The translations under genes were made by a program, and so were the position numbers. The notes beneath the pieces are model-generated. The model had not been told where the DNA came from. It made no database searches and saw nothing but the letters and a program-made list of their open reading frames with translations. Source: Eledone cirrhosa (Eukaryota). From it: a DNA stretch of 64,000 nt. Positions within the stretch are counted from its first letter, which is position 1. Every line of letters begins with the position of its first letter. Shown one piece after another: positions 9,501 to 12,500 of the stretch. The DNA lies in NCBI GenBank assembly GCA_964016885.1, contig OZ024747.1, positions 13,454,001 through 13,518,000 of the forward strand, given 5' to 3'.

Positions 9501-12500
9501 TGTGATGACCACTCCAACCTAAGCCAGTATAGAAAAACAGACATAAAATGATAATAGTGATGATCATAGTGATTGTTTTAACCCTTTAGTATTTATTCTA
9601 TATCTACTATTGTATTTTCATAGTGAAAATACAATAGTAGATATGAGATTTTGATGTTATTTATTTTGAGAACAATACCTTAACATCAGTATGAGTAGCC
9701 AGTTACAGCTGGCTTGAACAGAAAGAGGTGAGAGAATTCTGGCCAGATATGGTCGGTTTAAATGCTAAAGGGTTAAAATAGAGATAGAATCATGTGATTG
9801 TTATTTGTCTGACAGAAACAAAAATAAAACTCATGACTAAAAAAATAACTTATTTAAAAATTGTTGTACTCATAATTTTTATTTCTTTTGGTAGTTTTTC
9901 TTCTAAAATTCACGCATGTTTTCACATATATTCTTCCAAATATTTTGTTTTTATTTCTATTTACACCTTATCCATTCTTATCAATATTCACCCCATTCCC
10001 TCTTCTGCTTTCTCATCACTATTTACCCAATTTCTCATTTTCCTCCTACCTCTCTCTCTCTCTCTCCATCTGTCATTATTCTAAACTATATTTGTTGTTA
10101 CTAATGTCTGTCTGTATGTATGTGAGTAGGTCAGTTATATATATATATATATATATATATATATATATATATATATATATATATATATAATTACAACAGT
10201 GACATAAACAGGTACTCAAGTTTTGTTGGGTTCTGGACCCCAACGAAACTTAAGTACCTGTTTATGTCACTGTTGTAATTATTTATACTAAACTCGTCCT
10301 ATGGACTGAGTGCTCTTACTCTTGGATATTTCCACTTAACTTTTACTTCAGTATATATATATATCATCATCATCATCATCATCATCTTTGTTTAACGTCC
10401 ATATTCCACGCTCGCATGGGTTTGGACGGGAGTTTTCCCACTTGAGGCAAGAGTGGTTGTCTTGCTCGCATAGGACTGTCTGTCTGGCGGGTTTTCTACA
10501 GCTGAATGCCCTTCCTAACACCAACCACGTTTACAGTGTGGAACTGGGAGGTTTTTACCGTGTTACCTACACGGCCACATTACAGCGTGGACTGTGTGTT
10601 TTTTTGTCGTGACACCTACACGACCTCATTTGTATATATATATATACTGTATATATACCTCATATATACCTCATATATATATATATATACCTCATATATA
10701 TATATATATACTGTCATCACAATCATCTTCACTGCTACAACTATCACCATCATAACATACAAGTGTGATCAATATAACTATTGTTAATCATGTTGCTAGA
10801 TCATATAATGTGTCCAATTTAATGGAAGACCTGAAATTCCTGTATCGTACGGCTGGCCAAGAAGGCAAGAGCATCACGTTCCTATTTACTGACAATGAAA
10901 TCAAAGATGAATCGTTTCTGGAATATCTTAACAACATCCTAGCATCTGGAGAGGTAAGATCTATCCATTGTCATCACAATTCAACATCCTTTTATGTTTC
11001 TTTCTCTCTATCTCTTTTAAACTTTTGAAGGTGTATGGTTTAGTGGTTAGTGTGCTCAGATCATAATTGGGAATTTGATTCCTGGTGGTGCATTGTGTCC
11101 TTAACCCTTTAGCATTTAAACTGGCCGTATCCAGCCAGAACTCTCTCACCTCTTTCTGTTCAAACTGGCTATAACTGGCCACTCATGTTGATGTTAAGGT
11201 ATTGTTCTCAAATTAAATAATATCAAAATCTCATAGATTCGATATTATGTGAGATAATTATGTGAGATAATTATGTGAGATAATTATATGAGATAATTAT
11301 GTGAGATAATTATATGAGATAATTATGTGAGATAAAGCCTTCAGTGCACTCAGCTGGCAAAAATAATTTGCACTTCTGATTCAAAGGGTCAGTTTTCTCA
11401 CATACTATATCATGCTAAAACTGCTGTAAAGGTATACATGTCTATGGAATGCTCAGTCACTTGCATGACAATTTCATGAGCAGGAAGCTCCATTCATCAT
11501 TGAGCAAACTGGAACATTTATTGTTGAAACCAACAGAGTACCAACACACCAACACATAACGCATAAATCATTGTGAACTTTATCTTCAATTCAAAGGACC
11601 AAGCCTTGTCAGACACTCCATGAGAAATAATTGCAAAGAATTCTAATAAATTGTCATTTGTAAAATCTATTGTTTTGCTATATATATATATATATATATA
11701 TATATAATATATAAGAACAAAAGATGGTTAAAAGAGTTCCATGCATCCCACCATGCGCACTCCAAAAACAAACACCATCATGCAACAACACCTGTGATGC
11801 ATGGAACTCTTTTAACCATCTTTTGTTCTTATATATTATGTATACTCCAGTCCTACAAACTGTAGAGTGCTTCTTATCCGATATCTGCATTGCTTTATTG
11901 TACTACAATAAAACTCACCTCCTACATATATATATATATATATAGTAATAATAATAAAATTGAAGACTAAAATCCAAAGAGGGCTCGATAAGGAAAATAT
12001 ATATCAAATATATAAGAACCGAAGAGCAAATATTTATTAATATAACAGATTAAAGTTTAAGCAAAGAATCGCTGCTTTCACCCTTAACGGGATCTTCTGA
12101 AACTATATATATATATGTATATCATCATCATCATCATCATCACCGTTTTACGTCCGTTCTTCCACGCTAGCATGGGTTAGACGGGTTGTCCTGTTGTGGG
12201 CAGTGTCTGGTCGGCTGACCATGCCTTGCTCATACAGGAACTGATCTGGCTTGATTTCTACAGCTGGATGCCCTTCCTAACACCAACCTCATTTACAGTG
12301 AGTGCTGGGTGCTTTTTCGTGGCGCCTACACGTCCACTTTACAGTGTGGGCTGGGTGCTTTTTTGCCGTGGCACCTCCACGGCCACCTTGCGGTGGGGGG
12401 GGGGGGGCATATTGTTTATATGCTTCAGCATGTACCCATGGGAGGTCGGGTACCCTGTAATATATGGATAAGAATGAAATGAAATGAAATTTCTCACTAT

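Follow-up and report, generated by a model that had tools for sequence, protein, structure and literature searches.

A young and prolific Penelope-like retrotransposon family in this genome carries, as judged from its sequence, a homologue of the hammerhead ribozyme in which U4 of the catalytic core is replaced by A (U4A), a change that is fixed in the family, derived and uncompensated. Three copies were recognized on the minus strand of the window, that is, the whole 64-kb stretch of DNA that was analysed. We refer to the family bearing this CAGAAGA motif as the A4 family; it comprises more than 20,000 copies in a genome of 3.0 Gb. To the reading that the motif is an attenuated hammerhead, which would cut weakly or not at all while its fold is retained for a structural role in the transposon RNA, we assign a probability of roughly 0.55. 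The family is intact and has expanded recently, and the change that it has fixed affects a position regarded as essential; even so, it seems to keep the fold, and it would provide a natural test of whether Penelope-like elements need their ribozyme to cut.

Three truncated copies in the window

The original prediction had read a CAGAAGA core at three minus-strand sites, and the sequence confirms it at each of them (Table 1), with the same stem II, GAAA, stem III and CUU following the core in all three copies. The copy at 12054, described there as having stems I, II and III intact, pairs as stated, with 5 bp, 3 bp and 4-5 bp, respectively. It is the only one of the three window copies with all three stems complete: copy 1 (the copy at 4071) has a mismatch at 15.2-16.2 in stem III, and copy 3 has a mismatch in stem II and no longer possesses the 5' strand of stem I. 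None of the three has the outer stem I helix or the bulge of full-length elements. The copy 2 insertion starts 6 bases ahead of the core, runs to the long 3' end (+158) and has TA runs on both sides.

The third copy, placed by the prediction at about 21544-21591, does have the CAGAAGA core, but it makes up one arm of a palindrome of 68 bp, with 67 of 68 matching, centred on base 21588, so that the plus strand carries a canonical CTGAAGA, which had been overlooked. Because it sits at the palindrome centre, this copy says little by itself about how the element spread. The CUU triplet is likewise present in all three copies and is less special than had been implied, because a canonical-core family in the same genome also has CUU (locus L019).

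Table 1. Positions of the A4-family copies, canonical-core hammerheads and other features in the window
Feature	Position	Strand	Remarks
Copy 1, truncated end, -5 to short 3' end (+70)	4047-4121	-	19.1 bits, E 0.0046; core 4116-4110
Copy 1 insertion, inverted second arm	4121-4216	+	Element positions +57 to +154
Copy 2, whole insertion, 5'-truncated pseudo-LTR end	11942-12105	-	98% to a full-length copy
Copy 2, hammerhead-type motif	12054-12104	-	20.0 bits, E 0.0023 against model of related Penelope-like hammerheads
Copy 2, stem I	12104-12100 with 12058-12054	-	5 bp
Copy 2, core CAGAAGA	12099-12093	-	
Copy 2, stem II	12091-12089 with 12083-12081	-	3 bp, flanked by U10.1.U11.1
Copy 2, GAAA	12079-12076	-	
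Copy 2, triplet CUU	12061-12059	-	Predicted scissile bond 12059/12058
Copy 3, long arm (-2 to +158) of head-to-head inversion	21436-21591	-	Core CAGAAGA 21589-21583
Copy 3, short arm (-2 to +70)	21585-21656	+	CTGAAGA at 21587-21593
Canonical-core type I hammerhead, other repeat family	21706-21751	+	Rfam: below cut-off
Canonical-core type I hammerhead, other repeat family	31820-31864	+	
Canonical-core type I hammerhead, other repeat family	31719-31763	-	
Canonical-core type I hammerhead, other repeat family	46290-46333	+	
Canonical-core type I hammerhead, other repeat family	47597-47649	+	
Canonical-core type I hammerhead, other repeat family	47553-47605	-	
tRNA-like match	33297-33354	-	
tRNA-like match	47686-47743	+	
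tRNA-like match	52183-52240	-	
tRNA-like match	60171-60228	+	
Long inverted repeat	44941-45170		Scores as spurious microRNA precursor
Long inverted repeat	31748-31835		Scores as spurious microRNA precursor

Several further features were seen in the window, whose repeats appear similar to those known from octopus genomes. The six canonical hammerheads belong to at least four other repeat families, and two pairs of them are inverted copies. In the Rfam scan, the matches listed (150 of 192) included only one of these six and no hammerhead at the three A4 sites. Four tRNA-like matches, all with an identical score just under the Rfam cut-off, are probably the heads of one SINE family, and the two long inverted repeats are likely inverted retroelement ends.

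The host element

From their sequence, the three window sites are 5'-truncated ends of one Penelope-like retrotransposon with a motif of type I hammerhead shape in its terminal repeat. Upstream of the motif lie about 930 non-coding bases and then an ORF. Open frames of 709-714 residues were found at three loci, two of which have the A4 motif in both terminal repeats, and among 30 ORF-selected loci the intact 709-residue ORFs flanked by A4 motifs had a median difference of 2.4%. The unit is about 3.26 kb long, and each terminal repeat holds one motif; the next tandem unit has its start codon about 200 bases after the motif. In full-length copies, a U-rich bulge of 7 bases and a 9-bp helix extend stem I. 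Measured from C3, the 3' ends of the copies fall at +70 or +158, within TA runs, and the copies frequently form inverted pairs in which both kinds of end occur, one on each arm.

Read by eye against the description of the Hydra clade (Craig et al, 2021, PMC8557442), the protein has the RW-basic (RWK-like) and DKT motifs, CxCX5C, a C-terminal endonuclease and CxxC plus CxH near its end, and the element targets TA; by these motifs, it would be a member of that clade. A Pfam search of the protein returned no family. Its database relatives are 37-55% identical, and no sister family closer than 55% was seen, the 664 kb of sampled DNA giving only 30-54% protein matches; a search with the nearest outside relative (P0001) returned what appears to be the A4 family. 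A covariance model built from relatives (see below) found only this motif, and no second ribozyme, in three full-length loci (L099, L102 and L115). Three further matches of that model were recorded in L094. Between the stop codon and the hammerhead, the non-coding repeat of L027 (minus strand, 2460-1560) contains a number of strong splice-donor-like sites, and a segment of about 125-135 bases is duplicated within it at about 80% identity. Other Penelope-like ORFs adjoin A4-family copies in L060 (1-1020, plus strand) and L073.

A at position 4 is the family consensus

A 24-letter core with any base allowed at position 4 gave 24,039 exact matches in the genome (reversed control, 0), and 759 of these (3%) had T, that is, CTG. 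In native context, A was found in 16,482 of 16,635 copies and another base in 153; among the matches listed for the latter (100 of 153), G, T and C numbered 38, 33 and 29. Among these non-A bases T is no commoner than G or C; the pattern fits random decay and gives no sign of a U4 subfamily. All 54 motifs at 28 of the 30 ORF-selected loci have A4, and in 664 kb of DNA sampled irrespective of the core the 26 matches comprised 19 with A, 2 with T, both of them palindrome arms, and 5 that were truncated. The family consensus built over genomic copies, a check proposed with the original prediction, therefore has A at position 4, and the claim that the element spread with this core is borne out.

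As for the minority CTG copies, the first 30 of the 759 loci to be inspected comprised 25 palindromic junctions centred on position 4, 2 native copies and 3 others, and exact head-to-head inversion junctions numbered 549 genome-wide. Such copies would have been produced by head-to-head inversions joined at a short palindrome around position 4, and in genomes of this kind a canonical core can arise as a side effect of an inversion junction. That the three window copies descend from a local mutant, or resemble a canonical-core family by chance, could be argued from the existence of 759 exact CTG copies, one of them on the plus strand of the window; however, with CTG at so small a share, mostly at inversion junctions, and with no excess of T in native context, we regard this as so improbable that it can be set aside. 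The picture of mostly CTG copies around a mutated local ancestor, which the prediction had set against itself, is not what the genome holds.

The polarity of the change was read from related elements at 79 metagenome loci, in a scan that allowed any base at position 4. A sense-strand C3-type hammerhead was found in 60 of the 79 (CT 71, CC 1 and CA 0); A4 is thus derived, because the relatives have U4 in 71 of 72 sense-strand C3 cores and A4 in none. In 600 kb of the same genome, all 40 matches to other families had U4, in a scan biased by a model built from U4 sequences, and five further rows were the A4 family. U10.1.U11.1 occurs in 30 of 50 related loci and is hence a clade trait, and the A4 family differs from its relatives also in G15.2-C16.2 and a longer stem III. 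Two related elements have U3-A8 cores and one has a C4 core (L175:2400, L187:1938 and L140:2168). A TAAC-like motif is found within 70 bases before the core in 29 of 50 related loci (L126-L204; shuffles, 14.0).

A hammerhead homologue with one core exception

Copy 2 and the full-length copies have the type I architecture, with three helices around the core and the ends in stem I. The motif has C3, G5, A6, G8, A9, G12, A13, A14, A15.1-U16.1 and H17; position 4 is A where U is expected, and 10.1-11.1 is U.U instead of a pair, a known tolerated natural variant (PMC3088659). Because U4 is missing, we class the motif as a hammerhead homologue and not as a canonical hammerhead ribozyme, and any self-cleavage is putative. 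Rfam hammerhead models gave no match to the full-length motif at E values up to 10. A covariance model made from 25 hammerheads of related elements, none of them from the A4 family, scored A4-family copies at 19-21 bits (E 0.0004-0.005). The stems covary strongly among these 25 relatives, in 9 of 11 pairs; among 10 distinct A4-family rows, none showed a two-sided compensatory change. Folding energy does not favour the hammerhead fold of the motif (z 0.33 and -0.94); this was dropped as an argument against a hammerhead, because the canonical neighbours at 46297 and 21713 are similarly penalised (4.3-7.8 kcal/mol), which makes the energies uninformative.

Constraint on the fold

Constraint was evaluated with rows that all carry A4, 56 from the young subfamily and 19 of the older type, 9 of these 19 being from a mosaic element. 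Between the subfamilies, 11 of 117 upstream sites and 2 of 7 bulge sites differ, compared with none of the 69 other motif sites (p 0.008 versus upstream); without the sites forced by the search pattern, 0 of 45 non-bulge motif sites differ (p 0.035). The subfamily changes stop at the outer stem edge (-22) and occur inside the motif only in the bulge (p 0.007-0.016), and a single-reference version of the test, over the whole motif including the bulge, gave p 0.066. Frequent variants in the contig data are found upstream and in the bulge, those elsewhere in the motif being at about 6% or less among the 40 rows listed. In the mosaic element, which captured the motif, pair-breaking changes have become widespread, in 8 of 9 rows for stem II and in 9 of 9 for the outer stem I. 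Taken together, the pattern suggests selection on the fold after A4 arose, within a comparison of two subfamilies and 13-14 changes that cannot tell catalysis from structure.

The mosaic element is non-autonomous and is found at L265-L274 (e.g., L268:2400-3100) with whole and broken motif copies in tandem. Its terminus is a GC hairpin plus CTAG, resembling that of a Helitron. It accounts for 10 of the 100 non-native junctions among the matches listed (1,036 in total), and a recurrent junction immediately after the core AG, considered as a possible spliced copy, proved to be this element and not an exon join.

Cleavage and the copy ends

The predicted cut is at +40/+41, and the 3' ends of the copies lie 30 and 118 bases downstream of it; each core-bearing copy would therefore have needed an uncut template. 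No 5' end at the predicted cut was found in 60 ORF-running matches (nearest, +35 and +48), for which the reference was informative only to -30, or in 36 random-sample matches, where two ends at +39 were one fold-back. The missing ends discriminate poorly, because they are missing also in RNA data for the active ribozyme of the anole element, which cuts only with protein (PMC11167929). In a local sample, the start lies between -6 and +4 in 16 of 24 core-spanning arms, a proportion inconsistent with the genome-wide estimate for this 5'-end cluster of about 30% (16,310 upstream 22-mers versus 24,039 cores). Truncation and inversion points of the window copies (4121, 12105 and 21588) and of sampled copies cluster in the same interval.

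We favour an attenuated fold kept as a cis element over an active variant. In the attenuated reading, reverse transcription would start at the +70 and +158 3' ends and would have to cross the uncut bond; uncut RNA would be the template, and low cleavage would cost little or even help. The conserved stems would indicate that the RNA shape, or protein binding to the RNA, still matters. In the anole element, hammerhead mutants insert normally, unprocessed RNA serves as the main substrate and cleavage is dispensable in vitro (PMC11167929). It counts against attenuation that the other catalytic positions and the extended stem I with its bulge are kept, as expected of a working ribozyme.

The same retention would be accounted for by an active natural U4A hammerhead, compensated by the stem I bulge, a loop II contact, the 5-bp stem III or a protein, with cleavage serving to process tandem transcripts. 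From one subfamily to the other the flank drifts, with no change in the stems and loops, and stem III exceeds in length the short, palindromic stem III of the relatives, as in a monomer-type design. In addition, protein-assisted cleavage is known in another Penelope-like element (PMC11167929), and a natural U4C viroid variant, although much slower in vitro, is viable and has enough activity in vivo (PMC3088659). On the other hand, in pairwise mutagenesis of a tertiary-stabilised type III hammerhead, mutants of the CUGA region had low activity except for a C-G swap and were not rescued (PMC9901934). A4 appears in none of the relatives' 72 C3 cores and, within the U4-biased scan, in none of the 40 other-family matches, and genomic 5' ends at the cut were not found. 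We consider this reading possible but rather doubtful. Restoration of U4 by RNA editing was also considered and dropped: A-to-I editing yields a G-like base and would not give U.

Alternatively, U4A in one master copy may have killed the ribozyme and hitchhiked with the expansion, leaving the fold unselected. The youth of the family, the absence of two-sided compensatory changes, the spread of mosaic copies in which the 5' strand of the core is replaced, and the many Naiad elements that thrive without hammerheads (PMC8557442) are all compatible with such a relic. It is nevertheless unlikely, as the changes that stop at the stem edge and enter only the bulge argue for constraint and as stem decay is seen in the mosaic lineage instead.

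Still less probable, counting its two forms jointly, is that A4 is kept for some other signal, either the splice-acceptor-like TTTCAG that it creates in the core or a pairing with the U-rich strand upstream that would switch the hammerhead off in unspliced RNA. For the first form, the Penelope intron of Drosophila virilis has its end at the 5' end of helix I (PMC4209133), and a YAG is present in the 25 bases that precede the core at 40 of 50 related loci versus 24.9 +/- 3.5 in shuffles, a count for which the pattern was chosen after looking and the loci are not independent. This acceptor-like sequence of the relatives, together with their TAAC-like motif, hints at a conserved 5' UTR intron beside the hammerhead; a role of the intron in Penelope has been discussed (PMC2377424). 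For the second form, the young subfamily gives a prediction of 0.91-0.98 for an 11-bp helix that contains A4, against 0.02-0.34 with U at that place. The clustering of arm starts around the core also speaks for another signal. However, AG sites lie just upstream at -18 and -4, so that a third AG would not be needed; the older subfamily likewise carries A4 but gives no such predicted helix (0.0-0.14); and a candidate exon-end join was found in none of the 100 non-native junctions among the matches listed (1,036 in total), which is a weak result because these elements retain introns. An improbable combination, modelled on these pieces, is that A4 acts as a conditional switch, the hammerhead being off in unspliced template RNA and cleaving at CUU once splicing or a protein frees the core. 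If so, an active natural U4A hammerhead would let a retrotransposon separate messenger from template.

Comparison with known systems

The role of the hammerhead in Penelope-like elements has been called unclear (PMC8557442). If the motif is attenuated, a retroelement has spread to more than 20,000 copies with a silenced ribozyme; if it is active, a natural U4A core has been missed by CUGANGA descriptors and by Rfam. We found no U4A hammerhead in the literature searched; the supplements of PMC3088659, PMC4209133 and PMC9901934 may list position-4 data. A search by core spellings gave matches whose listed titles look unrelated. The string U4A is absent from the main text of PMC3088659, the motif spelling was not found in the Hydra/Naiad supplement (PMC8557442), and passages of PMC11014351 and bioRxiv 10.64898/2026.07.22.740005 held nothing on position 4. 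The natural core variants collected by Perreault et al (2011; PMC3088659) include rare changes such as viroid U4C, A6C and U10.1-U11.1; those are rare isolates, whereas A4 is the consensus of more than 20,000 genomic copies.

Among Penelope-like elements, the variants described by Cervera and De la Pena (2014; PMC4209133) have the same location as the A4 motif, and low in vitro activity is common among them; the D. virilis variant overlaps the intron end. Their core variant is a compensated U3-A8 pair, in contrast to the uncompensated change at position 4 in the A4 family. The closest likeness in architecture is to the Hydra-clade elements (Craig et al, 2021, PMC8557442), which share the single ORF with a C-terminal GIY-YIG-type domain, RW-basic, DKT and CxCX5C, as well as TA targets, tandem and inverted truncated copies and a type I hammerhead in the terminal repeat. 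Their hammerheads are described as canonical, whereas the A4 family has A at position 4, G-C rather than C-G at 15.2-16.2, and a stem III of 5 bp with a 7-base non-palindromic loop; its unit of about 3.26 kb also differs.

The behaviour of the copies resembles that of Poseidon in the green anole (Frangieh et al, 2024, PMC11167929), which has two internal reverse-transcription starts downstream of the hammerhead; the +70 and +158 ends of the A4 family would match these two start sites plus a tail. Tailed and untailed copies, AT-rich targets and uncut RNA as template are described for Poseidon, as would hold for the A4 family. In Poseidon, loss of cleavage was engineered at C3 or G8, whereas in the A4 family a natural change of the core has become fixed.
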